Below, piece after piece: positions 1-61,604 of a stretch of DNA of 64,000 nucleotides. Origin of the DNA: Vicugna vicugna (Eukaryota). The translations under genes were made by a program, and so were the position numbers. The notes beneath the pieces were generated by a model. It did not search any database. It saw nothing but the letters and a program-made list of their open reading frames with translations, and had not been told where the DNA came from. Each line of letters begins with the position of its first letter. Position 1 is the first letter of the stretch. The stretch covers positions 13,202-77,201 of the forward strand of contig MU057959.1 of the NCBI GenBank assembly GCA_013265495.1, given 5' to 3'.

Positions 1-607
1 AGTAACAATTACTATCAGGACATCTTGGGACATTTGAATAATTCGTAGTGTTTTTTTTGTTACCATCATCTGTGATTCAGTGAGAATAGACATGCATACA
101 AGCCCTTCCTCACTGATTGCACGTTAGCTTCATTCAGCTAATTAGTGGCTTAGTCACCATCCCACCTTTGTTCATCCTTGTGTCACTCTGTCAGTGTGGT
201 GGATGCTATAGTTGACTATAATGGGAAGAAACCAGAGAAGACCTTCCTTATCGCTGCCTCCTTATACACCTAATCTTGTCACACCTTGCAGTCTTACTAA
301 GATGTTTTCTTTAACATGTGTTTTATGGAATCCAACATGTTTTTTTTTTAACCCCATCTGCATATTATCACATGCAAGTTCAGGAACTTTGTATATTTCC
401 ATCATCCCAGCAGTGGTGTTGATTTCTCCTTGGGAACAAAAGCAACTGACCAATCAACACTTGATGTTACGAGTCCTGCCCTGTATCAGGCAGCCTTCTG
501 AACAGTGTGTTTGAATGACTGCATTTCCTCTGCCCCACAGTCTTATTGTGTGATGTAAAAGCTGTCCAGATGCCTCTACCTCATGTGTTGGTGTTAGGTC
601 AAGTTTA

Positions 608-3600
608 GAGGGTGGAACCAAGATGGCAGAGTAGAGACTCACAGCTCAGCCTCTCCCACAAATACACAAAGAGTTACATCTACAAACCCATTGAATCCCA
701 CAGAATACCTACTCAACTCTGGCAGAGTGTCTCTAATTTCAAAAACAGGAGGATTCTCACAAAATACAGTAAGGGAAAGGAGGAGAAAGAAAAAATTGTG
801 TGCAGGACTGGTCCTGCAGATAGGGTGTGGCTTAGGAAGAAAGGCACCCTCTCGATGTGACACCCCCCTTTCAACAGGGAGGTCAGTGAGAAAAGAAGTG
901 GTGCTTCCAAGGCTCAGAGGAGACGGTGACAGAAGGCAGAACTCCTGGAATCTGACCCCAAAGTTCCCTGCTGTCCATGGCCCTAAGTGGGGGTCAGGAG
1001 TTATGAGCCGGGGCTGGCTGCTGGAGATCCGTGACAGCCCAGGAAGAGGGCAGGGGCCCACTGCACAGAAGCAGCCTCGTGGGGCTGGAGGGCAGTGTGA
1101 GCTCTCAGTATGCGTACGGAGCAAAACATCATCGGACTCTCAGACAAAGCACCTCTGTTGGTCCGTGTTGGGGAAAGGGGCCTAATGCAGTCTCATCATA
1201 GCCACTTTGCTTGGCTCCTTTGTTGTGTTCTTGTCAGAAGAGAACTGTGGCTTGGTCAGAGCCGTCGCTGTTGCTTGGGGCAGTCCTGAAGGGTGACTCC
1301 ACACCCTGTGGCCCTGCAGCTTCAGGAGCTGGACTGAGATTTGTTTGTAGCCCCAGGCAGATAAGGTGGATTTGTTCTCTCTGGACCATTTGTGGACTCA
1401 TGCCTCTGGGAGCAGGGAGCAGGGAGCAGAGTCCTGACTCATGGCAGGGGCAAGTTCAGGTATTTTCAGCAGGCCAGCATACAGCACTGTGCTGACACTG
1501 GCACAACATAGATTCAGGTGTGTGACTGCACACTTGCTATGGTGGGTCCTAGTGCCTGACATTGGCAGATCTCAGTGGTGCTTCCTGGGACCCAGAACCT
1601 GCGGAACACCATAGTACGTGGCCAACATTCCCACAGCTGAGGCAGAGACAAAGGCAGCATCAACAAACAGTACTTGTAAACCCACATATCAAGTGACAGA
1701 CACCGCCACAGAGGGCACTTCCCAGTGGACATTACCTGCCTACTCTTCTTCCCACCTGAGGTGCTCCAACCCTGCCTGCTACACACCACAGGTCAGAAAC
1801 AGATCTAGAAGTCTCTATTCCAGCTACAGAGGAGCAGACCAGGCCTGTCTCAAGGCTGTGACCACTACAAAACAAAAAAGGCCTGGTTCAACAACAACAA
1901 TCAGGGCGGGCTCTGGTCACCACAAAAGCAACCACACCCTTAATCAAACGGATAACAGCTGACACTCCTGGAAGAAAGACATGGCAACAATCCATACTAA
2001 GAACAGCCATCACAACAAAACTATTAGATGCACACATTCTACATGGGAACGTTCCTACATGAAATAAAAACAAACAGGAAAAAAAAATAAAACAAACCTT
2101 TCTTCAGGAACACAGTAGATAAGTGATACTCCTAAATCCATAGAGGCAGAAAAACATAAGTAAAATGAAGCAGAAGAATTGCTCCCAATGAAAAGAACAA
2201 GACAAATCCCTGAAAGAATGATCAAGGAAATGGACTTCAAGAGTCTACTAGGTCATGACTTCAAAAAGGGAATGACCAATGCGATAAAGGAACTAAAATA
2301 CATTATCAGTTGAGACAGAGAATACTTTAAAAAAGAAATTAAAAGTATAACAAGAATCAATTCAAAATAGAAAACTCAATGGCTGAGATAAGAGCCAAAC
2401 TACAGGCAATCAGAAGCAGACTACATTATGCAGAGAAACCAGTAAGTGACTCAGAAGACAGGAGTACAGAAGGCATCCATCAGAACAGCGGACAAAAAAG
2501 CAAGTAAAAACCAATGAAAGCAAAATAAGAGACCTATGACATAATACAAAGTGTGCCAATCTGTGCATAATAGGGTTCCCAGAAGGATAAGAAAGAGAAG
2601 TCTTTGGAAGGGCATTTGAAGAAGTCATGACTGTAAACTTTCCAAACCTAAAGAAGGAAACACATATCCAAGTAAAGTATAGGAGGCACAGAGGGTCCCA
2701 AACAAGAAGAATCCAAACAGACCTACACCAAGACATATTATAACTAAGATGGCCAAAATTAAAGATAGAGAAAAGATTCTAAAGACAGCAAGGGGAAAAT
2801 GGAGTTAATTACAAGTGAACCCCTCCGAGGCTTTCAGCTGATTTCTCTATACAAACACTAGTGGCCAGAAGGGAGTGGCAAGATATATTCAAAGTCCTGG
2901 ATGAGAAATCACTGCAACGTAGGATACTCTATGCAGCAAGACTATCCTTTAGAGTAGGAGAGGTAAAAAATTTCACAGGCTAGAAAAAACTAAAAGAGTT
3001 TAGCAGCACTAAACATGCTAAAAGAACTATTGACAATTTCTAAATAGAAAAGAATAGAAAAGAAACAGGAAGCTATAGAAATCAGAAAACCATAATGGAA
3101 AAATGATAACTACAGTTAATATCAAGAGAATAAGCATTAATATGTAAAAAAAATCAATAATAAAAGCTGATAGGGAAGCCAGAAAATACGTATTTTTTTC
3201 TTACTCTTTGTTTTCCTTACTTTTTTTTTCTTTTTAGAATATATGTGAACTTACATGACTATCAGTCTATAGCAAGCAGATATATGAAGGGTTTGGCATA
3301 CTTGAAAAACAGGGTAAGCACAAATCAGTAGCATACAAGTGAGTCAGAAAAAAGAAACAGAAACCAAGCTAATTCAAAAGAAAATTATCGAAGCACTAAG
3401 AAAAACAAAAAGAGAAAGAGAAACAAAGAAGAAATATCCAATTAACTGGAAAACAAAGTTCAAAATGGCTATAAACACACATCTGTCAATAACTACTGTA
3501 AATGTCTGTGGACTAAATGCTATCAAAAGATATAGAGTGATGGATTGGATAATTAAAAAAAAAAGCCTACAATATGCTGCCTACAAGAGATCAAATTACA

Positions 3601-6600
3601 GTAAAGGACACATAGTTTGAAAGTGAGGGGATGCAAAAAATATTTCATACAAATGGAAAGGACAAAGAAAGCAGGAGTGGTAATACCCATATCTGACAAA
3701 GTAGGGTTTAAAACAACAGCCATAAAGACAGAGAAAGGACAATATATAATGATCAAAACAGTGATACAAGATGAAGATATTACACTCATTAGCATATATG
3801 CACCCAATATAGGAGCACCTAAACATGAGAAAAAAAATGACCAGACATAAAGGGAGAAATTGATGGGAATACAGCAGAACTAGGAGGCTTCAGGTCTCCA
3901 GTAACATCATTGGGCAGATCTTCCAGACAGAAAATCAACAAGACAACAGAGATACTATGTGACACAATAGGACAGTTGGACTGGTTGATAGTCTTTGAAC
4001 ATTATATCCTGCCAAAACAGAATATACATTCTTTTCAAGTGCTCATGGAATATTTCCTAGGATAGACCACATACTTGGACACAAAAAAGCCTCAAGAAAT
4101 TTAAGAGAATAGAAATTATTCCAAGCATCGTCTCTGACCACAGTGTCACGAAACTTGAAATCAACCACAGAAAAACAAAGTAGAAAAAGATGGTAGCATG
4201 GAGACTAAGCAACATGCTACTGGAAAACCAGTAGGTTGATGATGAAATCAAGAAGAAATTAAAAAAATACCTTGAGACAAACGATAGTTAAAACACAAGC
4301 ACACAAAATCTATGGGATGCTGCAAAAGCAGTCCTAAGAGGGAAGTTCATAGCAAAAAAAACCTTCCACACAGAAGAACAATCTCAAATAAGCAGCCTAA
4401 CCTACCACTTGAAAGGATTAGAAAAATAAGAACAAAACCTACAGTCAGTAGAAGGAAATAAACAACGATTAAGGAGGAAAGAAATAAAATGGAGATTAAA
4501 AAAACAATGGAAAAAATCAATCAAACCAAATACTGGTTTTTAGAAAGAGTGAACAGAATTGACAAACCTCTGCCCAGGCTCACCAAGAAGAAAAGAGAAA
4601 GCATATAAGTAAACAAAGTAAGAAGTGAAAATGGACAGATTACAACCAACTCCACAGAAATACAACAACAACAAAAATAATTGTTAGAGAATACCATGAA
4701 CAACTATATGGCAATAAATTGGACAACTTAGAAGACATGGACCGGTTTCTAGAAACCAACAATCCACAAAAACCGAATCGAGAAGAAATAGATCACTTGA
4801 ACAGACCAATCACTAAAAATGTAATACAATCAGCAATAAAAAACTTCCTTGCAAACAAAAGTCCAGGACCCAATGGCTTCATTAAGGCATGCTATCAAAC
4901 ATGCAAAAAAGAACTAAATACAAATTCTTCTCAAATACTTTCAAAAGAATGAAGAGGAAGCAAAACTCCCAAACTCATTTTATGAAGCCACCATCACTAT
5001 GGTCCTGAAGCCACAGAAAACAGTACCAGAAAGGATGCTGTAGGCCAATATTGTTGATGAACATAGATGGAAAATTCCTGAACAAAATATAAGGAATCAA
5101 AATCCAACAACACATAGAAAAGATCATACACTGTGATCAATTTGGATTCATCCCAGGGACAGAAGGATGGTTCAACATATGCAATTCAATCAACATGATA
5201 CAGTAGCACGTCAACAAGAGAAAAGACAAAAATCACATGATCATATCAGTAGATGCAGAAAAGTCATTTGGTAAAATTCAATACCCAGTTATGATAAAAA
5301 CTCTTACCTGAGTGTAGAGGTTAACATATCTCAACATAATAAAAGCTATCTGTGACAAACCTACAGTCAGCATAGTACTGAATGGTGAGAAGCTGACAGC
5401 CTTTCCGCTGAAATCTGGAACAGGACAAGGATGCCCACTCTCACCACTTCTATCCAATATAGAATTGGAAGTCCTAGTCATAGCAATTAGAGAGGAAAGA
5501 AAGAAAAGGGATCTAAATTGGAAGAGAAGCACTAAAATTGTCAATATATGTGGATGACATGATAACTGTATATAGAAAACCCTAAAGGCTCCACCCAAAA
5601 ATTACTAGAGCTAATCGTAGAATTTGGCCCTCCAGCATGATACATGATTAACATTCAGAAATCAGTGCTTTTCTTTACACTAAAGATGAAATATCAGAGA
5701 AGTAAAGAAACAGTCCTTTTTAAAATTGCATCTAAAAAAATGAAATAGGAATAAAACAATGACTAAGGAAACATGACTTAAAGAGCTTAAAGACATTGAG
5801 TAAAGATGACTTTAAAGAGTGGAAAGAAGATATCCTATGTTCTTGGATTAGAAGAATTAATATTGTTGAAATGGCCATACTACCCAAAGCAATCTACAGA
5901 TTTAATGTTATCTGAATCAAGTTACCAATGATATTTTTCAAAGAATTAGGAAAGTAATCCTAAAGTTTATATGGAATCACAAAATACCCAGAATTACCTA
6001 AGCATTACTGAAGTAAAAGAACGAAGCTGGAGGTATAACCACCCCAGACTTTAGACAATACTACAGAGCTACAGTAATCAAAACAGCATGGTAAAGGTAC
6101 AAAAACAGACATATGGATCAATGGGACAGAATAGAGAGCCCAGAAATGAACCCACAAACTGTTGGTCAATTAATATTTGACAAAGGAGGCAAGAACATAC
6201 AGTGGAGTAAAGACAGTCTCTTCGGTAAATGGTGTTGGCAAAACTGGACTCCTGCATGTAAATCAATGAAATTAGAGTGTTCCCTCACACCATACACAAA
6301 AATAAACTTAAAATGACTTAAAGAGTTAAACATAAGACAAGACAATTTAAACCTCTTGGAAGAAAACATCGGCAAAACATTATCTGACATAAATCACAGC
6401 AATGTTTTCCCTGGACATTCTACCCTGGCAATAGAAATAAAACTAATAAAAAACAATTGTGGCCTAATTAAACTTGAAAGCTTTTGTACAGCAAAGGAAA
6501 GCATAAACAAAACAAAAAGACAACTTACTGAATGGGAGAAAATATTTGCAAAAGATGAGACTGATAAGAGCTTAATATCCAGAATATACAAACAAAACGT

Positions 6601-7610
6601 ACAAGTTGATAAGGAAAAAAAAATCCAAAAATGGGCAGAAGACCTAAACAAGCAATTCTCTATTGAAGACATGTGAAAGTCCAATAGCACATGAAGAAAT
6701 GCTCAATATTGCTAATTATCAAAGAAATGCAAATGAAAACTACAATGAGGTATCACCTCACACCAGTCAGAATGGCCATCATTCAAAAGTCCACAAATGA
6801 CAAATGCTGGAGAGGGTGTGGAGAAAAAGGAACCCCCTACTCTGTTGATGGAAATGCTGTTTGGTGCAGCCATTGTGGAAAACAGTACGGAAATGCCTCA
6901 AAAAACTAAAAATAGATTTTACCATATGATCCATCAATCCCATTCCTGGGTATATATCCAGGGGAAACCTTAATTCTAAAAGACAGCTGCACCCCAAGTG
7001 TTTGTAGCAGCACTGTTTACAATAGCGAAGACATGGAAACAACCTAAATGTCCATCAGCAGATGACTGGATAAATACATGGTATATTTATACAGTGGAAT
7101 ACTACTCAGCTATTAAAAAGAATTAAATATTTACATTTGCAGCAACATGGATGAACCAGGAGATTGTCATTTTAAGTGAAGTAAACCAGAAAGGAAAACA
7201 CCATAGGATATCACTTGCATGTGGAATNNNNNNNNNNNNNNNNNNNNNNNNNNNNNNNNNNNNNNNNNNNNNNNNNAAAAAAAAAAAAAAAGACAAACGA
7301 ACTTATTTATAAAAGAGAAACAGACTCACAGACACAGAAACAATGTTTTGGTTACCAGGGGGAAGGGAGTGGGAATAGAAAATTGGGAATTCAAGATTTT
7401 CAGATACTAACTAAATATAAAAAGATAAAACAAGAAGTTTATACTGTGTAGCACAGGGAACCATATTCAATAAATTTTAGCAACTATGGTGAAAAAGAAT
7501 GAGAATGAATATATGTATGTTCATATGTGACAAGTATTGTATTGAAGGATAGAAATTGACAAAACATTGTAAACTGACTGGACGTCAGTAAAAATGTATT
7601 TAACAAAAGA
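608..7610 (+). mobile_element. Full-length, decayed LINE-1 inserted in intron 2 of lipocalin copy A, antisense to the gene
   Basis: The 5' end has the YY1-type motif CAAGATGGC (619-627). Remnants follow in order: ORF1 (~2160-3040), then ORF2 endonuclease (..ISIYAPNIGAPK), RT region and C-terminus (..[22 protein letters not shown]), then a 3' UTR with an A-rich tail. The target-site duplication is caagttta (600-607 and 7611-7618). Removing the element restores the sequence seen in D at ~51765-51800. Many stops and frameshifts. Confidence 0.95.
7228..7276. other. Assembly gap (N run) inside the L1 3' end
   Basis: Run of N characters next to a poly-A tract. Confidence 1.
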
Positions 7611-10600
7611 CAAGTTTACTTGCCAGGCTGTGGAGGAAGTGACCGCCTCACAGTGACCGCACCCCCGTGGAGGGGTGCACCTGACCTCTTTGGCTTCGTC
7701 CATCCACCTGCCACATTTCTCTTCAGAAGAACAAGCGCTGATCTACTCTGTGTTACCTCTAAGTCCATTCTCCCTTCTAGCCCCCGAACCCTTATTGAAA
7801 TCACTCATCTGGATCTGATTTAAAACTGCCCACCTATGTCTCTGAAACACAAAAACACCATTCCCCACTCTCTGGAACACTGAAACATCATGCGTCTGCC
7901 AGAGCAAAGACTAAGTAACAGCAGACACCTCAGAGTTTCAAAGAAGACTGTGCATCTTGCCCAAGGCCACTTTAAGTACATGGCCTTTGGGTTCCACTGG
8001 GACAGTGTAAATCAGGCTTCATGCATCTCTGCAGGTTCTCAGTCCCCACCTCTGTGACCCCCATGGTTTTACAGAGGACGGTTTGCAGAGAATCTCACTG
8101 TGGGCTCTCTGTGCTTGGAAGGTGAAGGACGCAGTGAGAGTAAGGGCATCTCCTGGGCCCCCTGTTGTGATCACGGCGCTGCTGGTGCTGTGCTGGCCGT
8201 GGCTGCACGTTATGTCCCCAGAACAACCTGGGGATGGGGGTGGGGGCTGCAACCACTTGTTCCCAAAGACTGTAGGACAGGCCAACTGTTCCTTTCACTC
8301 CCTTCTTAAATTTTCCTGTCCACGTCCAGGTATAAAAGATTCCCCAAAATGGAGAAATTTAAAGGAAAAGTACTATAAGCCTTAATGATTGAGCCAAAAG
8401 TAAATAATAATTTGGGAATGAAAAAATACAAACATCATTTAGGAAACATGTTGATGTATAAACTTACTGATGAATATGTAGATATATCCTTAAGACATAT
8501 ATTTTACTTCTTTGTTTATTGAACAACCTCTGTGCTATTTCTTCTGTTACATCAGAATTGGGACCTCACATTGATAAATTTAAATTTTCATCAACTATAT
8601 ATCCCTTAGACCATTTAGTTTAGGAATGTTGTTTAGGGCCATTAGAATGAACTTAGGTGCATTTTGGCCAGGAAATGCATTGCTTTGAACACAATCCATG
8701 TTTATGAAGCAATAAGCTTGGTGTTTGAAATCACTGTTTTGGGGGGGATTTAAGGTCCTTGGCTGTGTAGGAGTGGATTGAAGTGTTCTAAGATTGTTGT
8801 CAAAAAGTGTATCCTGCAGAATGACATTGATGTGTAAACTCAAGATAGTCCCTTGAGATGGTAGTTCTTAAGGTTGTTTTAAACAATCTAGGAAGAGATT
8901 CATGCACCTGAGAAACACCTGAAATAATAGTTCTATGTACATGTGGTTAGTCTGTCCTTGACCACACTCAAGATCGGGAGGGGCCATCCAGGTCATGAGA
9001 TTTAAGCCTTTGTTCATGACAAAGTAAAGTGCCCAGAAAATCTAGGGTCTATAGCCTGGTCATACCTCTCATCATGGTAGTCCTAGAATTTTAAAATATG
9101 GGCTCCCTGAAGGAGCTTGAGGCCAAGATTTCAACCCCAATATACCTTTACTCCTAAAACCATTATATTTGCAATCTATGACATAAACACCATCTGTTTG
9201 CTTTCTCCCTGGGGTGATTTCTATTTTCCGTTGTCCATTGTACCTTATATGGAAAACGTATTCAAGTGGGTTTATTAAAAATAATGAATAATTTGATATT
9301 TAATTAGGATTTTCTTTGTTTGACCCTCCCAAGTCCCTAGGTCTTCTATCACCTTAGAGCCTGTAAACAAGGTGACATTCAGAAGAGAAGAAGTAAGTCC
9401 TCTAAAATCAAGTAACTGTCCAGTGGCAAGGATGCATGTTTACACGTAAAATCTGAGTGGAAATTTGAAAGATAAACTACAAATTCACAGATCATGTTTA
9501 AAGCCTAATAAACATTAAGAAATCTAGAATTTGGGAAAGAAAAGAAAAGTAACGAGGGTTTTCATCAAACTCATGCCTGTCAAGATACGCCTTGTTTGTT
9601 TCACAACCCTGGCCATGATTTCTTAGAGAATACAATAACAGAGCAGTAAAAAAGACAAAAATGTGTTTAAGTGCATCCAAACACAAGCTCTTCTATGAAA
9701 ACACTGTAAGAGAATGAAAAATTGGAAGACACAAACACATATGTGTGTCAAAAATTGTGGCCACATTAAAAGTCAGTTAAGCATAGGGCAGAAAAAATTA
9801 TGGAAGTGGTAAAAAGAGGGATAATGTGATGTTCTTAAAATGTCTGACAGCTGACAGGTACGTCTGTTGGGATAGGATACATACATGTGTGTGGGTATAA
9901 TGTGATTATAAGTAGGCTATCAAATATATATAATATACAGTTAATTATATGTATTTGTATATCTTGAAACCGGTATCTCCAACTATAAAGCTCTTAGTTG
10001 TCTTCCTAGTATTTTTATTCCTCAAAACATCTGAGTTTTCAGACTCTTAGAAAACCTGCGGGGTGGAGAACATTCCATGAGCAACAGTGGAATTGTGGTG
10101 ACATGCATATGTTTAGTAATGATTGTAAATCACAGAGGATCAGCCTTTCAGGGTAGAGACACCTCTTTGTCACCCACAGCCCCACATGGTCTGGCGCCCA
10201 GTGGGAACCACATCCTCTAAATTCTGCATGAAGGAGTCCAGCCCCTAGGACTGTGGGGATGGAGACCAGGAGCCTCTTGTTCCTGGAGCCTTGTCCCCTT
10301 TTTCCTCTAACGAGTTGACTCCAGGGGAGGCTCTGTTACTCTCCCTCTAAGCAGAGGCTGCAGAGTCTCATGTTGAGTCTGATCCTGCACCCGACTCAGC
10401 TACTCCAGAGACCCTTCCAATGCACACAGCCCAGGGAGTCACATCATTGCAGCTAATCCAGGAATTTTACAGCAGATGTGGAGACCAGACCTTCTCTCAG
10501 GGTTGGGGATTTATGTGAGTTTCACTTCTGTGTTATTTTTACTTACCTATTGAACATAGTTAAGGTGATTATTTCATTTTCATTGTCGAACTCAATCTTA

Positions 10601-11115
10601 CAGATAAAGAGGTGGCATGGACAGGCCTCACTGATCCTCTAGGTGTTACTGGCTGCAGGATAAGTGGGTTTCCATTCTTAAATCTGAAAGCAAAATTCCC
10701 CTTAGAAACTGTGGTCACGTCTTTTCATGGTGTCCATCACCGTCCATCACAACTTTCTTTCCCTTCACTTCTGCACATCAGCACAAATTACCTACCTGGT
10801 ATGAACAAAGCAACGTTCATAAACTAATATGAAAACCCAAGGCAAAGGGGAAATACGGAGTTGACATTGTTCACAGATAGCTTACACCTTGTGAAATGGA
10901 ATAGCTCCAGTGGGACTGGTCTTTGGCTGACCCCTGTTCTCTTGTACAAGAACAGAAAAGATGTGGGACAGCCCAGTAATAGATTGTGCAGAGAGCACAG
11001 AGAGAACATAGCAGAAGTGCAGCCACCAGTTCGTGGAGAACTTCTGAGCTGGAGGTAGGTGGCCAAGTGAGGTACTTGGAAATACGGATACAAATAGCCA
11101 CAGCCCAAAAGGAGG

Positions 11116-11122
11116 CGCGCGC

Positions 11123-11165: not shown

Positions 11166-11169
<4 letters not shown>

Positions 11170-11349
11170 TACACGCGGAGAAGACTTCCTCCCATATGAG
11201 CTCATCCCTTGTACCTCTGATTGAGCCTCCTCAGTGTCAAGTTGTCAAAACTCAGCAACAGAATCTTCATTGTGTTTGTTCTTCTAGTTGTCCTGTTGGC
11301 GAAGCTGACCGTGCACCAGTTGGCAGAGAGAATCTGAATGTGTGCTCCT

Positions 11350-17224: not shown

Positions 17225-19533
17225 GGTAACAATTACCAGCCCTTCTGCTCAACTTCAGACATGCTGTGATTTGGGAGAAGGCACATCCCCTCGGTTATAG
17301 AGCATGGCATTTCTTACTTTGCCTGCATAAGTCTCAGGGAGTCCCACACATGTTTCCCCAGAATGAATAGGATGATGTGTGGGGACTTTTTCTTGAGCAC
17401 AGTGCCCCATCCCACTTCAATAAAGTGCCCATAATCCTCTCCCCTTTCCCATGATGGTGAAGTTCTTTTTTCTCCCTCATTGGGACACCTCGTGGACATC
17501 TCTATTTGACCTTCATCACACTTTTCTCTGGTGGGGCGTCTGTCCTATTAAAGGAATATGTTCCTGGATGTTTAGTGTGGGTATTTGTGAGTTTTAAATT
17601 AGGTGACTTTCTGAACAGATACACGTGCACAGAGTACCTATTAAATTAATTTATTTAAACCCTCAGAAATCAAATATCACGAAAGTGGACTTGAACAGTG
17701 AGCAGGAGAGAAGAAATGGGAAATAAGTATGTTTATGGAGAGAGAAAGATGATGTTATGCGGAAACCAGGGATGTTGTCTCCATGTTGTTGATCCTGATT
17801 CCATGCAGATGATGACTTGCCTGGTTCTCCGTCACGTGTTCTGTTGGTGAATAAAATAGGACAGGATTTAGTTGAGTTGACTGTATGACAGGTGACAGGG
17901 CTCACCTTCAGGGAGAAGTGTGTCCAAGGGCACAGGAGCTGCTAGTGTATCCAGTAGGCAGATTCCACGTGGAACTTTATACCCCCCATGTGTCTGATAT
18001 GTGAGTATCCATTTGCAATTCCCACAAGACTGTACATATTGTCGGACCTCTCCTGTGTAGGATTGATTCTAGTTTTGTGATTTCAGGATGCATCCTCGTG
18101 GAATGTTTCATCTAAAAATGATTGACAGGATCTATGACTGAGTTACACTTTTCCAATATTAAAAGTTTTGCCTTTGGTGGCTAGAGAATTACATTGTTTT
18201 ATAAGCTACTATTACTGCTTGCCTTTTTCCTCTCTTTGCTCCTAACAGAAAAAAAAAAATGACAGTTTAGCCTCATTCAATGTCCTTTTTCCTGGGCTAT
18301 CTTGTTCTAGAAACCATAAAAGTCCCTCTTTCCCATAATCACCATCTACAGGGGAATATAAGCCAAATGCATGTTTTTTACTTATTTTTGTTTTTTAATC
18401 AACCCCTGTGCTATTTCTTATGTTACAGCAGGGTTGGGACCTCATACTGATATATTTAAACTTTCATCAACTACGTACCCCTTCAACCATTTAAACTTAG
18501 CAATGCTGTTTAGGAGTCTTTGAGCAAACTCAGACATTTACATCTTTGCCACCAATCTAATTGCTTTGAACACGAACTGCGTTTATGAAGCAATAAGCTT
18601 GGTGTTTGATATCAGTATTTTGGGGAGATTTACGATCCTTGACTGTATAGGAGTGGATTAAGATGTTCTAGATTTGTTTTCAAAAAGCATATTCTGCAGA
18701 ATGACTTTTATGTGTCAACTCAAGACAGACCCTTAAGACATTATTCCTAAGGTGTTTTGTGCTTTTTTTTTTGGAAAGACTCTAGAGTTTCATTCACTTC
18801 AGAACCTTCTGAAATAATGGTTCTATGTCAGGTGTCTAGCTTGTCATTCAATACACTGAAGATCGGGAGGGGCCATCCCATTCATGTGATTTAAGTCTTT
18901 GTTCATGACAGAATCAAGTGCCTGGAAAACTTAGGGTCTATTGCCTGGTCGTAGCTCTCTGTGTTAGCACTAGAATTTTAAAATATGCAGTTATTGAAAG
19001 AATTTCAGGCCAAGATTTCGACCGTTATAAACTTTTACCCATAAAACTGTCATACTTAGAATCTATGGTACAAACACCATCTACTTGCTTTGTTCCCTGG
19101 ACACATTTTATTTTACCTTCTTTATTGCACCTTAAAAAGAAAGCATAATCAAATTGGCTGATTAAAACTAATGAACAACTTGACATTTAATTACAATTTT
19201 CCTTTTTCACCCCCCCTAGTATCAATGTCACCTATCACCTTACTGCCTGTCAACAAGGTGACATTCAGAAGAGAAGAATTAAGTCCCCTAATATCAGGTA
19301 ACTGTCAAGTGACAAAGATGCCTGGTTACACATAAAATTGGAGCAGAACTTCCAAAGATAAACTATGAATACAAAACAGATCATTTTTAAAGCCTAGTAA
19401 ACATGAAGAAATCTAGAATTGGGGAAAGAAAAGAAAAGTTACAAGGGTTTTCTTAAAATTCATAACTGTCTAGACAAACCTTAGTTGCTTCACAAGCCTG
19501 GGCAAGATTTCTTAGAGAATATAATAACAGAGA

Positions 19534-19534
<1 letters not shown>

Positions 19535-37759: not shown

Positions 37760-37766
37760 TTTTATA
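37760..37766 (-). promoter_or_regulatory. TATA box of copy C
   Basis: TATAAAA 84-90 nt upstream of the ATG, with a CCAAT pentamer on the opposite strand about 30 nt further upstream. Confidence 0.75.
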
Positions 37767-47000: not shown

Positions 47001-47129
47001 CTGTGTTTTTAAGCCAGTGTTTGGTATCTGTTGAGTGCTATTCCATGAGTTTGTAGATGAAATTCTTACTGTGTTTGTGGGTGAGGGTTGGCTGTGGTCT
47101 CAATACTCCATCATCTTGGCACCTCTCTC
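44005..47129 (-). mobile_element. ORF2-deleted L1 between copies C and D
   Basis: 5' end catcttgg at 47112-47119, ORF1 remnants at ~44750-45630, and fusion to the 3' UTR at ~44340. Probable target-site duplication tataccaatctttt (43777-43790) and tacaccagtctatt (47130-47143). Confidence 0.9.
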
Positions 47130-50100: not shown

Positions 50101-53100
50101 AGACAGATGACTCTCAAGATTGTCTTCTGCAACCTCCTTCTCCTTCAACACCTCCGTAATCTGCGCTAAGATTTCATCTTTTGTATAACATTTTTTGGCT
50201 GAAAATCATAATACATAAAGCAGAATTTTGACCATTAGAAGCCCTGAAAATTTCTGAACACAGAATAAGAAATTAGATGTGCAAATCAGATCTTCACTTA
50301 GTACAATTTTAATAGAGCTTCAAGAGACACAGATGTCCGCTGCCTGTCTTCAGAATGAAACCTTGTCTGACTCCTTAACTACTTTCTCTCCAGCATCACC
50401 ACCAAGGCTCTGATGACTCATCAGGACCTCTGTGAATCTGCTTCCTAATTGATCACAAATATTGAAAGTAGTTCCTTCTTTATCAGCTTCCTAGCATCCA
50501 TACCTGACAGTCAAGCCTCATTCTGGACAAAATATTCTGGAAACGTATTCTCACATTTTAAAGACACTTTGAGCCTGTGATGCATTTTTATGGAAGATGA
50601 TTTATTCTTTAATCAAACTGCAGTTCTCCTCAGTGCCTTTTTGAAATAGACACCTGTTGTCCCAGGGACTATAGCGCACCTCTCAGTAAGCCTTTGTGCT
50701 CTCCTTTGGTGATGTCTGCATTTATCAGAACATGGCATGAGAGAAATTGAACAAGATGAAGGTGTATTTTAAAGCTTCAGTTCCATGGCTTAGAATGCAT
50801 TGGAAAATGGCATAAAATGAAGTAACTGCGGTCAACCGAATCATACCCATGGCTTAAAATTACTTCACAAGTTCCGAAAATATTTTTAAAACAACTATAT
50901 TTTTAAAATTCTTAAATGTGAACACATGGGACTTATTTTGAAACATTAGGTGATCTGTTACTTCCCACAGCTACCAGCTCCTCTTATTACCGTTGCTTCT
51001 TCATAGATCACATCATAGGATCCTTAATGAACACAACGACCTAGGCCTTGTCAATGGGTAATGAGCCATATGTGCACCTGGTGACTTTTTGAATAAAAAT
51101 GCTGACAGGGGGAGGGTTACTAGACACTGACCATGGAGATAGTAGAATGTGGTACATACCAAACACTTCGAACACAAGAATGGTCTCATTGCCTTCTTCA
51201 TCCACCTCTTCAACAGTTACTATCAGGATATCTTCAGTCAGTTGAATAATTTTCACTTGTTTTTTACCATCATCTGTGAGTGAGTGAGAACAGACATGTG
51301 TACAGATGCATCTTCATTGATTGTGCTTTAGCCTGTGGGGGGCCGTGTGTCGCTCCATCACTGCACTGATGCTACAGGTGGTTATGACTGCAGGAAACCA
51401 GGGAAACACCTTCCGTATCACCACCTTCTCATACATTTAACCTGGCCACCAATTGCCGTCTTAGTAGAATGTTTTCTTGAATCTTGGCTTCTATGAAAGC
51501 TAACATGTGTATTTTGTCTTTTTAACAACATGTGCATATTATCACATGCAAGTTCAAGAACTCTGCACATTTCCAGTATCCCAGCAATGGAGTTGATATC
51601 TTTTCGGAATCAAAATCGGATTACCATTGAAAAGTTGGTGTTATGAGTGCTGCCCTTTAGCAGACTGCCTTCTGCACATTGTGTAGGAATGATGTCATTC
51701 CTCAGCCCCTCAGTTTTTAAGTGTTATGTAATAGATGTGATGAGGCCAGAACCATGTGTGTCGGTGTTAGGACATGTTTACTCACCGAGATATGGAGGAA
51801 GTGATCACCTAAGAGTGAATTCACACCCCTAGGAGTGGTTTACTCACTTCTTTGGCTCCATCCACCCCCTGCCACATTTCTCTTCAGAAGAACAAGCTGA
51901 TCTTCCCTGATTACCACTACATCCTTCTCCCTTCTAGCCCTCTTTGACACCTTATTCAATCACTCAATCTGATCTGATTTAAAACTGCCCAGCTGTGTTC
52001 CCAAAACACAAAAATATGACTCCCATTCTCTGGAACACTGAAACAGCACGTGTCTGCCAGAGCAAATACTAAGGAACAGCCAGCACAACTTCAGACTTTC
52101 AGACAAGTCTTCCACCTTGCCCAAGGCCGCTCCTAGTCCATGGGCCTTGGGTTCCACTGGGACAGTTTAAATCAGGTTTCATGCATCTCTTCTGGTTCTC
52201 AGTCCCCACCTCTGTGATCCCAACAGTTTTACATAGGAGGGTTTCCAGACCGTCTCACAATAGGCTCTATTTGTTTTGAAGGTGAAGGAGGCAGTGAGAA
52301 TAAATCCACCTCCTACGCACTCCTGCTGTGATCAAGGTACTGCTGGTGCTCTGCTGGCTGTGGCTGAAACTTACGTCCCCAGAACAACACTGGGTGGTGC
52401 GGGCTGCAACCACTAAGTCCCAAGTGACCTGCAAAACAGGCCAGCTGTTCCTTTCCCTCCCTTCTTAAATTGACCTGGCAACATCTAGGCAGAAAGGATT
52501 CCCCAAAAAGGAGAAATTTGTAGGGTAGATAGTAGAATTATGAATGATTCAGCCGAATGGAAATAATATAGGAATTAAAAAAAACATTCTTTAGGAAATG
52601 TCCTGATAGATGAAGTTATTGATGAATATGTACAGAAATCCATAAGGCATATATTTCACTTACTTCTGTTTATTAAACAACCCCTGTGCTATTTCTCATG
52701 TTACACCAGCGTTGGGACCTCATATTGATCTATTTAAATTTTCATCAACTCTGTGCCCCTTAATCATTTAAATTTAGGAGTGCTGTTTAGGGCCATTAGA
52801 AAGAACTTAGACATTTAAAACATAGCTTCCAACCTCATTGCCTTGACCAGAAATCATGTTTATGAATCAATAATCTTCATCTTTGATATCACTATTTGTG
52901 AGAGGATTTAAGATCCTTGGCTGTATAGGAATGTATTAAGATGTTCTAGGACTGTATTCAAAAAATGTATCCTGCAGATTGAATTTGATGTGTAAACTCA
53001 AGATAGACCCTTGGGAACTTAGTTTCTGAGATTGTTTTAAATAATCTAGGAAGTGTATTGAGCACCTGAGAACCTCCTGAAATATCAGTTCTATGTACAT

Positions 53101-53718
53101 GCGGTTAGTCTGTCATTGACTATGCTCAAAGTTGAGACAGGCCATCTAAGTCATGTGGTTTAAGCCTTTGCTCTTCAAAAACTATAGTGCCCAGAAAATT
53201 TAGGGTCTATAGCCTGCTTGTACCTCTCTTCTATGGTAGAACTACAATTTTTAACTATGGAGTTCTTGAAAGAATTTGAGTCTAAGATTTCAACCCTAAT
53301 ATACTTTTACCCATAAAATGGTCATACTTACAGTCTATGACATAACTACCATCTTCTTGCTTTTTTCCCGTGACAGTTCCTATTGTGCGTACTCCATTGC
53401 AGCTTAAAGGAAAACATAATCAGACTGCTTGATTAAAAATAATGAACAATTTCACATTTAATTGGGATTTTTTGTTTCACCCTCCTTAGTATCAGTGTTA
53501 CCTATCACCTTAGTGCCTATGAACAAGGTGACATTCAGAAGAGAAGAAATAAGTCCTCTAAGATCAAGAAACTGTCAAGTGGCCTGGATGACTGGTTACA
53601 CACAAAATCTGAGCAGACATTCCAAAGATAAACTAGGAATACAAAGCAGATCATGTTTAAAGCCAAAAAAAAATGAAAAAATTATAACTGGAGAAAGGAA
53701 AGTTATAAGGGTTTTCTT

Positions 53719-54966: not shown

Positions 54967-56406
54967 GAACAAGAAGGTAATATGATGGTCTTAAAATGTC
55001 TGCCAGCTATTTTAGAAGATATGCATATGTGCGTGGGTGTAACTTGATTGTATATTATATATATTTGATAGCCTACATATAGTCAGCTATATATACTTGT
55101 ATATCTTTAAAACTACCTCTCCAAACATAAAGCTCTTAGTTGTCTTCTTAATGCTTTTATTCTTCAAAATACGTATCTGAGTTTGCATGCTCCTAGTAAA
55201 ACCCCTGCCAAGTGGAGAACAACCCATGAGCAGCACTGGGAGCTGTGGTGACCTTAATACATTTAGTGATGATTGTAAATCACTGAGAGTCCTTCAGGGT
55301 AGTGGCCACTTTTTCATACATGTCCCCACAGCCTCTGGGGCTGAGGCAGAAGTATGTCCTACAAGTTGGACATGGACTTAAGGCCCTAGGGCTGTAAGGG
55401 TGGAGGCCAGAACCCTCTTGTTCCTGCTGCATTGGCATTTCTTTAATGACTTGACTCCAGTGGAGCATCAGTGAGTTTCCCTCTAAACAAAGTCTCCAGG
55501 ACCTTCTCTAGAGGCTGATCCTACACCTGACTGAGAAACTGCAGATACCCTTCTAATCCTCAAAACTCCGGGAGCTGCAGTCTTCCACTTAACCCAGGTG
55601 TTTCACAGCAAATATTGAAGCCAGACCTTTTCTCAGGGCTGGAGCTTTATGTGAGTTTTCCCTGGTGTTATTGTTACTTACCATCTGCAAATCCTGAAGG
55701 TTCCTGTCTCAATGTCAACAATATAGATGATAAATAGGCATGGGTAGTTCTCACTTGTCTCTGAGATATAAATCAGTTTCCATTCTGAAACCTGAAAACA
55801 AAATTTACCTGAGAAACTGTACTTGATCTCTTTTCCTTGTGTCCACCACCATCCACCATGAGTTTCCCTTCACTTCTGCACATCAGCACAAATTACCTAC
55901 CTGGTATGAACAAAGCAGGGTTCATAAAAGAATGTGAAAACCCAAGGCAAAAGGAAAACATACAGTGGAGATTTTTAATAGATAGCTTATCCCTGTGAAG
56001 TGGAAGAGCTCCTTTACAAGGACAGTAAAGATGCGGGAGAGGCCAGCGATAGATGGTACAAGGAATACAGAGACAGCATAGGAGAAGTGCAGGCGCCAAT
56101 TAGTGGAGCAGTTCTGAGCTGGAGGTAGGTGGCTACGTGAGGGGCACGGAAATATGGATACACATTCCCACATCTCAATAGGGGACACAGACATGCTTAC
56201 ACACAGACATGACCTCCTCCCAGATGAGACTGTCCCTGGTACCTCTGTTGCAGCATCCACAGTTTCAGAATCTTGGGCAGCACAAAGCACACCAAGTAGA
56301 AGAGTCAGGAACAGAATCTCCATCCTGTCAGTTCCTCTAGTCCTCCTCCAGGAGAAGCTGAGCATGCTGTGTACCAGTTGATGGAGAGAATCTGTACATG
56401 TGCCTC

Positions 56407-56413
56407 TTTTATA
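56407..56413 (-). promoter_or_regulatory. TATA box of copy D
   Basis: TATAAAA at the conserved position upstream of the ATG at 56323. Confidence 0.75.
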
Positions 56414-58621
56414 GTGTCCATCTGTGTCCTGACCCATAAGGAGCCAATGGTTGTCAACCTAAGACCTTGGTGACATAGACATTTTGTTAGGATATCCTGG
56501 TTGGCAGGGAGGAGCTTTTCTGGACATCCGTTGTTATTATTTGAGATTAGTTTTAAGAGAAGCTGAAGTTAATCTAGATACTTGATCTTTAGGGTAAGTG
56601 AGAAATCACAGTACATATGACATGTTTCAAGGACAGTGAGATTTATTGGATCCTCAAATCCAGAATGGGGTAAGTCCAAGACATGTGTCCCTAAATGGGA
56701 AGTTGTTTCTTTAACATTGAGGAGATACATTAAAACTTATCTTCTCAAACTGAAGATGTTACTGTTTAGTATAACAGGCTTCCAGTGATTTCCTTTAGAG
56801 ACCTTAGGGACATCTCCAATCCCTGAGGGGAGGAACAGATCAGCACAAACAGGTATCTACCCCACCCTCCCCAGATGGGGCTCTGTTGTCCTTTTCACTA
56901 AGAGGACCTTCCAGGCAGATGACCAGCACCCTCTTGTGAGGAAGATACATGAGCAGTTCATTCTCAGTGCTCTATTTTCCAAACACCTTTTTTACGATAC
57001 AGTCTTTAATATATTATTTATTCATGGGCTGAGTTGTTTTTCCAGGCAAGCAATAAAGCCTGATGGTAGTTGCTTCAAGTTTTAGAAGTTAGAAAGGAAA
57101 AAGCATATTCCCTTCTTTGTAGCTCTGGTTATTTTCAAGGACCCTGAAACAGGCAAAGAACTTCCGCTTTGGAATTTTTATTCATGTTCATTTTCTTTTG
57201 TTAGTGATTTATCAGATACATTCCCTAAGATTTCTTTTGTTCTGACTATAATAATCATGCTTGGATTATATCATACTCCTCTCAGTGAGAACACCAGAGT
57301 CCTGACTCAGTCCCTGCTGGTCCTGGGACGCACACAGCCTCAGTGTGTCTGTGGTGTGTAACCTTTGAGGAGAGCATGGCTGAAAGTGGTCTTCAGCCTC
57401 CATCTTATGTCTGACACTTGTCTTCATACTCAGAAGTGCCAAATACATTGATTCACTGTTGCTTTTCTCTTTTGTTTTGATCCCAACTTCATATTTTCTC
57501 TTACTTTAAGAGTCCACTGTGTATTTTGCTATCCAGCCTTTGACTGTGAAGTCAATGGGAGGGAGGTCTTTCGTGTCTCAAAATGTCTTGGAATTTGTTC
57601 TCTTACCTCTGGGACAGTTCTGAGCAGGGTCATGATCCCAGCTGACACCTCTCGTCCACTTTTCTCACTCCCTCCAACGCTGCCTCTTTCACCCCAGTAT
57701 TAGCATGTTTTTCTTTTGGTGTCCTCCCTACGTGTATTCCCCGGGGATGTGCACCAAGATTATCCCATCTTAGGAAGAGCTTTGGAACTGCCAATCAAAG
57801 TGAAATTAAACAGTAGTTGATCTAAGAGATTATTATAGCAGCTTGGTGTTTGGATCCTGTCAATCATGTAATTTTAGACCTACAAAATCACATGACATTT
57901 TCTCCTGATTGGCTTGAATTTGTGTCGCTCACAATATGTCTTAAAAATGTGACAAATAATAAAGTAACCATCCTATATAAACATGGAGATTTAAACCCCA
58001 AATATTGCTAAGCCATCCTGTATAGATGTTCCTGGACTTTCCTTCTCAAATTTGATCAGGTTTCTGGAAACCTGTACACCATCTCTCCCACTTTATCAGC
58101 TAATTTCTGTCTTTTTTTCCTGTTTTCTCTGTAATGATCCTTTTTACATCTTAAATACCACAATGCATCTATAAATAGTGCAAGGAAGATTTAGAGCCTG
58201 GCCACAAGACACGCCTGATTCCCTCAGATTTCTGACCACAATTCCCATGTACTTAGAATCTGAGTTGACGTAACTCACTACTTTTCTACCTTCAGAGTTG
58301 TGATCCTGGTGAGATTCTGACCCCCAGTGTCTCTCAAGTGGGGACACACTCGCAGTTCCCCAAGTATTTCATTGATGATACTGGTTCTGATGGAGGCTGT
58401 TCAGTGCTGTGCTTGATCCATGTCTTTTTATTCAGTTCCCTGAAACACGCCATTGTTCCTGGTCTCACAGCACACTTGTCAGCAAAAGTGGGTCTTCTTC
58501 CTAAAGCTTGCCCTGTGTTCAGAGTCCCCCAGGTCACTGGTCCCCTCGGTAGAACTCTCTGTTCCTAATGAAGAGCTGTGGTTGGACCAGATCTGAAAGG
58601 ATTCTAAAGCTGATTGAATGG

Positions 58622-58834: not shown

Positions 58835-61604
58835 GTTAATAAGAGTTAACAAGCTCCCCTCAGCCAGAATTCAGCCTCGGTCTTTGCGATGACTGCACAT
58901 TTTGGCAAGACTTGCTTCTTTTCCTAATTGCTCTGTAGGTGGTCTCCCTGTCTCCCTCTCTGTTCCTGATACACTGGATTTGTGCTGACTCAGGAGGTTT
59001 TCTACTTACTTTTGCCCACAGTGTAGTAAACCTCCACACTTCAAACCTATTTACTTCTCACTTTATGAGCATTCTTTCCTTTCATAGGCAGTCTTCATCC
59101 ACTAAAGAGTCACTTCCACAGTGTCATGGTCTTTGGTGTTTGGAGCTGGCTGCATCCTGAGTGCCCAGAACTGGTGAGTGAATGAGTTAGTGTGTGTCCC
59201 CGGGGATTTCTGTTCCTGATGGGTACATTTTTGAAACCATGAATGTAATAGTGAGATTTGGTGAAAAGAAATCCTGAAGGACCTGATAATGAAGAAAGGT
59301 CCAGAGGCATCTCCAGGGATCATTCTGTTACACTCATAGGAGTATGGTTGAAGTAAAAAGGACCCTTGTCAGCGAAGTTCCTTGGCCAAAGAAGGAAGTC
59401 TCTAGCCAGTATGGTCGGACTGACTGATGTGTATGTAGAAGAAAGTCGATGTTGGACAGCATACCCTGTGTACGCTAGTTGTACTCAAAATGCATGAAGA
59501 AAGGGAAACACAGTCATGGCATGTTCAGTAACACAGGTGGTGTATAAAGAAGGAGGTTCCCACCTTGAAACCAATTTACAGAGAATAGGGATTCTGGTGT
59601 TAAATAATTACCCAGGTTGTACATTTCAACATAGCTTCTGAGGGACCTCAGTAGTCTGTCTCAGAAAAGGATCACCATATTTCCATGAAATGTCAAGGGG
59701 TTTGGAAACACTTTGAGGTGTTAAACAACCTCATCAAAGAAGAGCTAGACACTTGATGTGAATGGCAGAGGCAACATCTACATCTGATCTCAAATTTTCT
59801 CACTTGACCTTTTTTGTTTTAAAGTCATTGTCTTTGAAAGTCTTTCAAACCCATCCATTGTTGAAGAAATTAGTTTAAAAAAATAAGAAAACTTACATGC
59901 TCCATCACCTTCATATTTCTTCTGGAAAGTTCTGGAAAGTTTTCAGTGTGCAAAAAGATTTGAATAGGACTAAATGTCATATCCTGCAAATGTCAGAGAA
60001 GGCATCTTCCAGGAGAAAAGGTCCCCATTGTCTCTTTCCTGAATTTACCTTTGACTTGCTTTCCCTGTGTTGGTTTTGGTCAGTTGGTGTTTGTTAGTTC
60101 ATTGTTTCCATTTCATCATGTATGTGTTCTTTACTGAATAATGGGCACTCTATTTCTGAGATATATTTCCATCTGCTTGTCTCTGGACATAGTCCTTGAT
60201 CATAATGTTTATTGTGAACTAAATAGGATTTTTTTCCCCATGCATCCACCCTGCTCTAAGTAGTAAGTGAGGATTAGCTAAGGTTATCTTGGAATCAAAA
60301 GCCAATGTGAAGAACAGTGGCTCCCAGACCAGTCCTTCTCAAGGTGTGTGCACACAGTGAGAGAAAACTCTCAGTCCTCTGTGGAGTGTTGTGTTTCCTT
60401 TTGTTTTCTGGCAACTTAGAATGGAAGTGGTATCAGCCAATATACAAGAAACTTTTATACACATATGCATTAAAAGCACAGTGTGTTCTGTGAGTTAGCT
60501 AGTGTCCATTGTTTGGTCTTCATTCAGTTAATATGGATTTAGCACCTATCATGTGCAAACCTCACCCAAGTCTCAGAATTCCTCAGGAACCATATAGACT
60601 GGATTAAGAATCTAGTGAGGTTATCTCCCTGTGAAAGAGACAGAAGATAAGCAAGCTCCCCACTCTTGCCAAATATCTCATCTGTTTCTAAATTCTGGGA
60701 TGAAAACTAAAACAAGGCAGCACCATAGAGTGTATCTGGGTCCTTTTTTGGAAGGAGGTGGAATTTCCAAAATGAAGGGTTTATAGTGAAGCTCTGAGGA
60801 GAGTTTGAAGAGTGAGTTGAGTGTGTATCTGTGACAGGAATGTGCTGGCAACAGAAAATAAAAAGATGTTTTGGGTGTTGTTTCTACTGTTTCTGTCAAT
60901 ATTTTAAAGTTATGTGCACTTTGTAAGACATTTCCATGTATAGGAATCATGAAATAATTGAGACATACAAAACTCATTGCTGGTATGATGACTGTCGTAT
61001 TGAAACGTTTAGAAAGAAAGCTAGCAGTCTTGTAGCTGAACACATTCGTAGTAGGAAATGGAAGACATTAAGTTCATAAATTAGATGTCTCTGAATCCAC
61101 ATATAAACAATCTCTAAAAATATGTCTACCTGAATTAAATAAAAGTATGATTTTGTTGATATTTTTTCTCCTCTACATGTATAAAACAAGGGCCTCTGTC
61201 TGATATGTTAGTATGTTTGTGCATTAATGAAAGTGCATACCTTTGTAAAATGTAGACTTCATACCCATCTCTTGAAATAACTTAATACTATCTATACATT
61301 AAGGACAGGTTGTGATATGAAATACTTTAATATGAAATCACAGTTATGTATCTGTGGAATTATTTGTCCAAGTATAGGTATTTCTCCTTGAATGTTTGAT
61401 AGTTTTTACTTCTGAAATCTTTTGAACCTGAAACTTCTTTAAGCACAATTCTATGATGGCAAGTGGAATTTCTTTAATAGAGATTATACAGTAGAGATTT
61501 TTTATTTCATCACCCATTTTTTTCCTTTTTTAGATTCTATGTTTTGACTCATTTTATTCAATAATTATTTGATACCGACAACATGCAAGTTACTTTCTTT
61601 ATTT

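Follow-up and report, generated by a model that had tools for sequence, protein, structure and literature searches.

A tandem array of divergent odorant-binding protein-type lipocalin genes in Vicugna vicugna, with one intact copy

Odorant-binding proteins (OBPs) are encoded in placental mammals by an X-linked cluster of seven-exon obp genes, for which PMC8474896 describes 38 duplications and 15 losses and large gene sets in rodents, pig, and pecorans. In the dog, according to the same account, the obp genes have seven exons with the coding sequence in exons 1 to 6. The signatures that it gives are a GxW motif, a conserved pair of cysteines, a glycine after strand H, and a YxxxYxG motif, the last of which is only partly kept in dog OBPs. 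Residues 34 and 82 are described in PMC12185845 as the ligand gate of rat and pig OBP, with Tyr82 being 82% conserved, together with a disulfide between residues 63 and 155; binding is abolished when position 82 carries a small residue or when a disulfide is engineered between 34 and 82. The list of identified obp genes in the accessible material of PMC8474896 (Additional file 4) contains no camelid gene; camelids may be among the 98 genomes screened there. Here we describe four obp-like lipocalin genes, copies A to D, in a stretch of 64,000 nucleotides of the Vicugna vicugna genome (GenBank assembly GCA_013265495.1, contig MU057959.1, positions 13,202 to 77,201), which we call the window.

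One of the four copies, C, is intact. By descent, C is a member of the obp clade; judged by its signature residues, it is not a canonical OBP. The best explanation overall, to which we give moderate confidence, is that the array derives from OBP genes and that C is a secreted carrier that has been rewired. Its likely cargo would be small hydrophobic signal molecules, and the parts rewired would be the entrance to the cavity and the disulfides. We found no paper on camelid obp genes among titles and abstract starts, in a search for which subscription journals were mostly outside coverage, and none on a camelid lipocalin allergen, again by title or abstract start. The accessible part of PMC7830431, on the alpaca Y chromosome and pseudoautosomal region, does not mention obp genes.

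Array layout and homology of the genes

Comparison of the window with itself by BLAST gave four collinear minus-strand units with 74-76% identity over 6.4-8.3 kb. The start codons (ATG) lie at 11270 (A), 21165 (B), 37676 (C), and 56323 (D), all on the minus strand, and each unit has a TATA-like site 86-91 nt upstream of its ATG. An earlier note on this DNA had described a head-to-tail order with ATG spacings of 9895, 16511, and 18647 nt, which our values match exactly, and had stated that promoter, exons, introns, and flanks are common to all four units, which the collinear matches bear out. The acceptor of exon 7 and a poly(A) signal are common to B, C, and D. When nucleotide profiles built from these same window exons were run across the whole window, exons 1, 2, and 3 were each found in exactly four copies, exon 4 in three (C, D, and the start of A), exons 5 and 6 in two (C and D), and exon 7 in three (B, C, and D). 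These profiles gave no fifth copy, stray exon, or further remnant within the window, and no other gene was found there. The birth and death that the note had described, with at most one or two functional members, can be recognized in one intact copy (C), one frameshifted near its end (D, off-frame at exon 6), and two broken by several lesions (A and B).

Copy C has GT-AG splices, cumulative intron phases of 0,2,1,1,1, and an open frame of 190 codons, which is the six-coding-exon layout proposed earlier. This phase pattern is a lipocalin trait. The features of C are as follows.

37760..37767, minus strand: TATA-like site of C
37554..37676, minus strand: C exon 1 (signal peptide and acidic N terminus), GTAAGT donor after 37554
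36967..37103, minus strand: C exon 2, 137 nt; S-E-W replaces G-x-W; C-P-C at the gate loop
35595..35665, minus strand: C exon 3, 71 nt; without the canonical Cys63, with a Cys four positions earlier
33396..33506, minus strand: C exon 4, 111 nt; VDEEG; the codon split by intron 3 is Glu at gate position 82
32356..32469, minus strand: C exon 5, 114 nt; 4 codons longer than 102
32111..32156, minus strand: C exon 6; stop at 32140-32142; GTAAGT donor
31010..31208, minus strand: C exon 7 (3' untranslated region [UTR], non-coding); poly(A) signal near 31024

Exon 1 of C has two candidate donors that lie 42 nt apart, a weak one after 37596, homologous to that of A, B, and D, and a strong one after 37554, and the frame is preserved with either. 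Use of the strong donor (37554-37595) adds 14 acidic and small residues to the N terminus. With a signal peptide of 16 residues, whose boundary was set by alignment, mature C has 174 residues, an isoelectric point (pI) of 4.05, 11 Cys, and no N-glycosylation site. The signal peptide of the window genes matches that of canonical OBPs by alignment.

When exon 2 of B, C, and D was made into a profile and run against the PDB, the top 8 of 11 matches were OBP-clade lipocalins, at the corresponding N-terminal position and each of them weak (E 0.023-0.13). Against 1.84 billion proteins, the same profile gave 8 matches at E<=1e-3. The three that were inspected are all PF00061 lipocalins, two of them Camelus dromedarius records named OBP; the other five, outside the inspected set, are multi-stretch alignments. 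An alignment of the two dromedary proteins retrieved five more OBPs of camel, alpaca, and reindeer. We then used a profile of six OBPs that are PF00061-positive and all external to the window, with the dromedary protein P0002 (KAB1253562.1) left out. Mature spliced C scored 66.8 bits and D 56.4 bits, and exons 2-3 of B and of A scored 46.7 and 52.0 bits; none of 500 shuffled sequences for each of A to D reached the real score (maxima 4.6-15.0). P0002 itself matches PF00061 at E 2.5e-8.

The tree that we built, of 11 rows, has a branch with support 99/98 that separates the four window genes and P0002 from the other rows. The tips of the window genes and P0002 are long (0.43-0.92) and those of the canonical camelid OBPs are short. 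The alignment for this tree was trimmed of signal peptides and of D's shifted tail, and P0014 (aberrant in its middle), P0009, P0010, and P0016-P0020 (fetched later or near-copies) were left out. Our own fold model of P0002 shows eight to nine strands, a helix, and a strand, with a predicted local distance difference test (pLDDT) value of 51; Foldseek gave bovine, dog, rat, and pig OBP as its best matches, all of the top hits being lipocalins, with template modeling (TM) scores of 0.34-0.47. The Atlas model of the same protein has a predicted TM score (pTM) of 0.70 and a TM score of 0.64 to an OBP cluster. On these models, P0002 appears to fold like an OBP, at low to moderate confidence. Its sequence matches to OBP of cattle and pig have E values of 1e-17 to 7e-15, and its ranking runs from OBP to Can f 4 and Bos d 2 and then to MUP/SAL types.

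The exon-2 profile, the six-OBP profile, and the tree agree on OBP-type lipocalin homology. The earlier wording was "OBP and Bos d 2-type", and of this the OBP part holds and the Bos d 2 part finds no support, P0002 matching OBP at E <=7e-15 versus 2e-8 for Bos d 2. The camelid context was well placed, as the nearest relatives with a name belong to Camelus and Vicugna; VDEEG is found in C and D, and the F.EV...G...EN segment fits C. We regard the anatomy and homology of the array as near certain. Several public models of camelid OBPs (P0003, P0011, P0012, P0014, and P0002) look faulty, with a skipped or replaced exon 3, a read-through tail, or a missing signal peptide, and therefore the camelid obp cluster is poorly annotated in public records.

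Cysteines, ligand gate and divergence of the exons

Two traits of these genes are the most distinctive, namely the rewiring of cysteines and gate and the faster divergence of exons than of introns, and the earlier interpretation had missed both. Residue numbers given here are those of pig OBP read off the alignment (dog 136 equals pig 121, an offset of 15). The canonical Cys63 is lost in all five clade members (A, B, C, D, and P0002), Phe35 has become Cys in the same five, and position 33 is Cys in three of them. One Cys after strand H and another on the last strand are present in all three members that have those exons, with D taken in its pre-shift frame. The terminal Cys (pig 155) is present in C and P0002 and off-frame in D, and the conserved 63/155 pair is broken in the window genes. 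Of the GxW signature, the four window genes keep the Trp and lack the Gly, which is missing also in annotated canonical camelid OBPs. Gly121, after strand H, is replaced by Glu in C, by Lys in D, and by Val in P0002, and is Gly in the canonical camelid OBPs. YxxxYxG, with gate residue Tyr82, is seen in D but neither in C, where the second Tyr is Glu, nor in P0002; A keeps a Tyr codon at position 82. The exon-2 hairpin of A to D has no CxxxC.

The number of mature Cys ranges from 5 to 11 in the window clade, with 7 in P0002 and an odd number, 11, in C. Six of the cysteines of C are common to other clade members. Compared with D, C has five cysteines of its own in exons 2-5, where simulation expects 1.9 (p ~0.04). 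On the alignment, the clade's invariant new Cys adjoins the ligand gate, because Cys35 is the neighbor of gate residue 34. C would presumably fold as an eight-stranded barrel plus a helix. Its C-terminal Cys, having lost the partner known as Cys63 in pig, would pair with one of the new cysteines of the subfamily. Since Cys35 lies beside residue 34 and Glu stands in for Tyr82, we predict for C a cavity that is more polar or more open, with ligands other than those of a canonical OBP. To judge from the family only, C would be secreted into nasal mucus or by skin, scent, or reproductive glands.

Between copies, over all pairs, the divergence K is 0.23-0.35 (about 0.28) in introns and 0.20-0.24 in promoters, and 0.14-0.17 in the 3' UTR versus 0.36-0.59 in exons 2-5. 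The mismatch fraction is 0.32-0.38 in exons versus 0.22-0.25 in introns and is higher in exons in six of six pairs, with Fisher p values from 0.009 to 4e-9 for pairs that are mutually dependent. Between C and D, codon positions 1 and 2 exceed introns (p 1e-7 and 1e-3, respectively), and four-fold sites (4/17) are not above them. In a site test M2a was favored over M1a at p=0.044, with about two thirds of codons at omega 2, a marginal result obtained with our own code on a star tree that included two pseudogenes. The evidence for diversifying selection on the mature-protein exons is moderate. Such selection would have pushed the barrel-coding exons apart while promoter, introns, and 3' UTR changed more slowly.

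Damaged copies, flanking insertions and age of the array

The remaining copies are damaged to different degrees. The features of D are as follows.

56407..56414, minus strand: TATA-like site of D
56243..56323, minus strand: D exon 1
55682..55791, minus strand: D exon 2, 110 nt; deletions of 15 and 12 nt, both in frame
53332..53402, minus strand: D exon 3
51160..51273, minus strand: D exon 4; gate Tyr82 kept; N-glycosylation sequon
50099..50198, minus strand: D exon 5, 100 nt; frame shifted within a short run of GA (50111-50115)
49850..49896, minus strand: D exon 6; donor GT changed to CT, located past the normal stop
48655..48852, minus strand: D exon 7 (3' UTR)

D is open through exon 5, but at 100 nt this exon leaves the last two cysteines off-frame. 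The lesion would be explained by the loss of a single GA unit (2 nt) at 50111-50115, because exon 6, when read in phase 1, encodes a Cys and then a stop as in P0002; on the same ground we discarded a further lesion at the acceptor of exon 6. The in-frame nature of the exon-2 deletions suggests that D was under selection until late. The shift in the GA run is the only frame lesion of D and could be an allele or an assembly error, in which case D would also be a live gene, its barrel being shorter by nine residues.

Copies B and A carry these features.

21248-21255, minus strand: TATA-like site of B
21089..21165, minus strand: B exon 1, 77 nt; 4-nt deletion, frameshift
20459..20595, minus strand: B exon 2; frame open; acceptor AG changed to AC
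19060..19130, minus strand: B exon 3; donor GT changed to CT
18361..18370, no strand: B deletion breakpoint; about 3.3 kb gone, including exons 4-6
17641..17839, minus strand: B exon 7 (3' UTR), retained
11350-11357, minus strand: TATA-like site of A
11215..11270, minus strand: A exon 1, 56 nt; 25-nt deletion
10547..10683, minus strand: A exon 2; two stop codons
9173..9243, minus strand: A exon 3; donor GT changed to GC
1..69, minus strand: start portion of A exon 4; 4-nt insertion; continues beyond the window start
603..7600, no strand: private L1-like insertion of about 7 kb in A intron 3; 49-N assembly gap at 7228-7276

The breakpoint in B was placed by self-BLAST, in which B 18366 pairs with D 52644 and B 18361 with D 49374. 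A is visible only to the start of exon 4, and its exons 5-7 would fall outside the window. Microsatellites are present in intron 1 of A (CA, 11122-11165) and in intron 2 of B (TAA, 19535-19575). Exon 7 of B, C, and D (17641-17839, 31010-31208, and 48655-48852) is the most conserved part of the unit, with 85-88% identity, and this holds even in pseudogene B (K 0.14-0.17); it could be a constrained RNA element or a conversion tract.

Three features of the flanks bear on how the array arose; the labels LTR-like (LTR, long terminal repeat) and L1-like, used for repeats throughout the window, are presumptive ones, given by general sequence features.

43790..47134, no strand: composite LTR-like and internally deleted L1-like insertion upstream of C, from self-comparison
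61265..61317, no strand: empty site upstream of D, with a single copy of the apparent target-site duplication
40648..43097, no strand: tandem duplication, about 1.2 kb, in the flank upstream of C; switch of flank affinity to A-like

The same insertion is found at the same site upstream of A (~16190-17225) and of B (~26300-29615), with a younger L1-like 3' end nested inside the B copy. Shared by A, B, and C and empty at D, it is a marker for the order and age of the duplications. Independent L1 insertions at the junctions were considered and dropped, given the same site, the same internal deletion, and the empty site at D; despite the shared-insertion reading, K between the junction L1 copies is 0.34, about that to a separate L1 in A (0.35). 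The 1.2-kb duplication upstream of C is likely a scar of unequal crossing-over. The array as a whole is mosaic: within the transcribed part informative sites support AC|BD, those of the near flank support AD|BC, and K is 0.12-0.2 in certain blocks of the flanks. The insertion in A, B, and C, the empty site at D, and the hybrid flank of C are the reason why we propose that the copies arose by old tandem duplication followed by unequal crossing-over. Around A 14560-15050, copies A, C, and D share a flank block of unusually high similarity (K 0.12-0.14). Further private L1-like insertions are found in intron 2 of D (53740-54941) and beyond D (61953-64000).

The C region is present in 20 of 24 sequencing runs. 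The best DNA holders share 0.77-0.84 of its words, and one DNA run that was mapped on C is ~99.5% identical. RNA contigs of three runs are unspliced and 5-6% diverged along the C gene (K 0.052-0.056), and we infer that they represent the C orthologue in the other camelid tribe. Being unspliced and diverged to this extent, they indicate an orthologue and not expression. In these contigs, the gap counts over C exons 4, 5, and 6 are wholly covered by listed intronic indels. The camelid tribes split 16.3 million years (My) ago according to PMC6726744 and 11-25 My ago according to PMC13751797; no date was obtained from PMC6618069. Intron K between copies (~0.28) is about five times the K between C and its sister orthologue (~0.05-0.06), and under a uniform clock the duplications would date to roughly 55-125 My, at or before the origin of the camelids. 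The camelid line originated about 55-65 My ago. With paralogue divergence at about five times that of sister lineages split 11-25 My ago, the births are old, and the sense of a recent expansion in the earlier note finds no support.

The Gly of GxW is absent in all camelid obp rows (the four window genes, P0002, and nine canonical records) and kept in pig, cattle, reindeer, deer, and P0006. The camelid rows group against the outgroups with support 93/95 in a tree with two outgroup rows, and among the matches of the exon-2 profile or the OBP alignment there was no named non-camelid member of the clade. From the shared loss of the Gly and the tree with its two outgroup rows, the clade is probably camelid-specific.

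Two RNA runs from different studies have a high-depth block at 32658-34367 that starts at a plus-strand splice acceptor (32660).

32661..34367, plus strand: possible antisense exon across C exon 4, from the RNA depth block and the acceptor

Depth in this block is ~90-110 versus 12 in run X15, which covers all 30 bins and may hold DNA, and 380 versus 0 in run X18; runs with a small share are no evidence of tissue. The longest open stretch in the block has 92 codons. The contigs are strandless, and the block is a weak hint of a non-coding antisense exon over C exon 4. Its plus-strand acceptor is also kept in an intron of D, near 50390.

Alternative readings and comparison with known systems

Several results speak against C being a working OBP-derived carrier with exons under diversifying selection. 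No spliced joint of C was found in the contigs of three RNA runs, whose tissues are by record not nasal or glandular. The camel poll-gland proteome (PMC11276878), a source that depends on annotation, has no OBP in its main text and no name with "odorant" in its supplement. None of 11 single exons matched PF00061, single exons gave nothing relevant in the PDB or in a word-indexed protein set, and exon 2 of B gave only unrelated matches in the ESM Atlas; the exons are too short and diverged for such searches. The one-ratio omega is 1.04-1.08 and thus not above 1, the site test is marginal, and exons 2 and 3 taken singly are exceeded by 1.6% and 5.8% of non-coding windows, respectively. C also lacks several OBP signature residues, which makes odorant binding itself uncertain. 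By simulation, the chance of C staying intact without selection is ~1e-4 since the duplication but 0.14 since the split from the sister lineage, and therefore C would have functioned for the greater part of its history, while at present it may be functional or not.

One rival reading is that C is dead or dying and the sub-array is a relic, its extra cysteines and fast exons being the product of relaxed selection. Three of four copies are damaged, omega is about 1, no spliced RNA was seen in the three runs, survival since the sister split is unremarkable, and two exact-word searches with single exons gave no database protein for C. We nevertheless consider this reading unlikely, as intactness since the duplication is so improbable by chance, neutral decay predicts exons that diverge as introns do and not faster, and six of the cysteines of C are common to other clade members. 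Moreover, the sister-lineage gaps over C exons 4-6 are all intronic, although stops and exons 1-3 are only partly checkable. We give no more credit to the idea that C is secreted but carries no odorant, its thiols and acidic surface serving to bind metal, to capture thiols or aldehydes, or to make surface contact, in a secretion of mucosal or reproductive origin, with a microbe or receptor. It would account for the Glu at gate position 82, Cys 33 and 35 around residue 34, the odd Cys number, the pI of 4.05, and the excess of C-only cysteines, and it fits with the abolition of odorant binding on loss of the gate aromatic in other OBPs (PMC12185845). On the other hand, D and A keep the gate Tyr, and lipocalin barrels tolerate wide sequence change.

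The remaining two alternatives concern the history of the array, and both seem to us rather doubtful, if somewhat less so than the preceding ones. One is that the duplications predate the camelids, so that pigs, ruminants, or whales hold unrecognized orthologues and the clade is not camelid-specific. The fivefold ratio of K and the clock dates point this way, the accessible account in PMC8474896 infers that two lines of obp paralogues go back to the base of the placentals, and our tree had two outgroup rows only. However, the loss of the GxW Gly is common to window genes, P0002, and the nine canonical camelid OBPs and is not seen in pig, cattle, reindeer, deer, or P0006, the camelid rows stand together at 93/95, the exon-2 profile found no named member elsewhere, and early rates were probably faster than recent ones, which would make the clock too old. 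The other is that gene conversion has homogenized introns and flanks, so that the exons only seem fast by comparison, with no positive selection. The mosaic of AC|BD and AD|BC sites, the flank blocks of low K, and a codon-model synonymous rate (dS, 0.28-0.58 a pair) that is not clearly below the nonsynonymous rate (dN) agree with conversion. Against it, differences at four-fold sites (12/43) and in codons of unchanged residues (16/82) are about as frequent as in introns, and intron K is uniform from pair to pair and from intron to intron, unlike what patchy conversion would leave. Our preferred reading remains an old OBP-derived array with C as a secreted, rewired carrier. A bolder version of it is a long shot: an ancient, fast-diversifying camelid offshoot of the OBPs with at least five paralogues, a gate Cys, and rebuilt disulfides, in which C, with its acidic gate residue and an unpaired thiol, would capture sulfur or carbonyl scents or metal by thiol chemistry and not by plain hydrophobic partition, and in which the exon-4 antisense transcript would regulate C in the reproductive tract.

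The closest described system is the placental obp cluster (dog obp1-3/Can f 4, pig obp1-5, and cattle obp1-10; PMC8474896), which resembles the window in its tandem seven-exon genes with coding exons 1-6 and a signal peptide and in repeated duplication and loss with pseudogenes and gene fragments. The window genes differ from it in lacking the GxW Gly, the first Cys of the pair, and the Gly after strand H. Nearer in kinship are the canonical camelid OBP-like proteins (XP_064339611, XP_031302517, XP_072812801, XP_031527111, and others akin to them), which have the same type of signal peptide, the loss of the GxW Gly, and VDEEG; XP_064339611 has a stretch of 11 residues after the signal peptide that is identical in C. 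These proteins have G-P-F at the gate loop and two mature Cys, with none extra, compared to 5-11 in the window clade, and they evolve slowly, with 59-90% mutual identity (166/180 between alpaca and camel), whereas identity within the window clade is 32-48%. P0002, recorded as a Camelus dromedarius "Odorant-binding protein", belongs to the same clade, with Cys35, no Cys63, and Cys after strand H, on strand I, and at the terminus. It is a paralogue that is 32-46% identical to the window genes and has seven Cys, and it is an automatic gene model without a proper signal peptide.

Among solved structures, bovine OBP (1OBP and the deswapped mutant 2HLV) and pig OBP (1A3Y and 1DZJ) are the best matches of P0002 in both sequence and fold. 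Bovine OBP is likewise without the 63-155 disulfide (Trp is there in the wild-type chains), but it lost cysteines and has a hinge one residue shorter, whereas the window clade gained cysteines, kept the length of the hinge, and substituted Gly121. Bos d 2, aphrodisin, and Cav p 1 have the same obp-derived lipocalin fold and are weaker matches of P0002 (E 2e-8 to 3e-4). Some of these three carry an extra disulfide, and a CxxxC hairpin motif is known. The extra cysteines of the window clade are at positions other than this hairpin of the Bos d 2/aphrodisin type. The three-finger toxin genes described in PMC2474615 also combine conserved introns and a conserved signal exon with fast mature exons; the likeness is an analogy of evolutionary pattern only, with no homology and no sign of toxicity in the window genes. 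If C is expressed, it would put the gate model of ligand entry into lipocalins to a natural test and would be a candidate for camelid scent or reproductive signaling, and the array flags genes that annotation seems to miss. Tandem obp clusters with gain and loss are known from rodents, pigs, ruminants, and carnivores, and as such the array is ordinary; what is new is a clade that departs from every named OBP signature yet keeps the gene structure, and in which the barrel exons outrun the introns.

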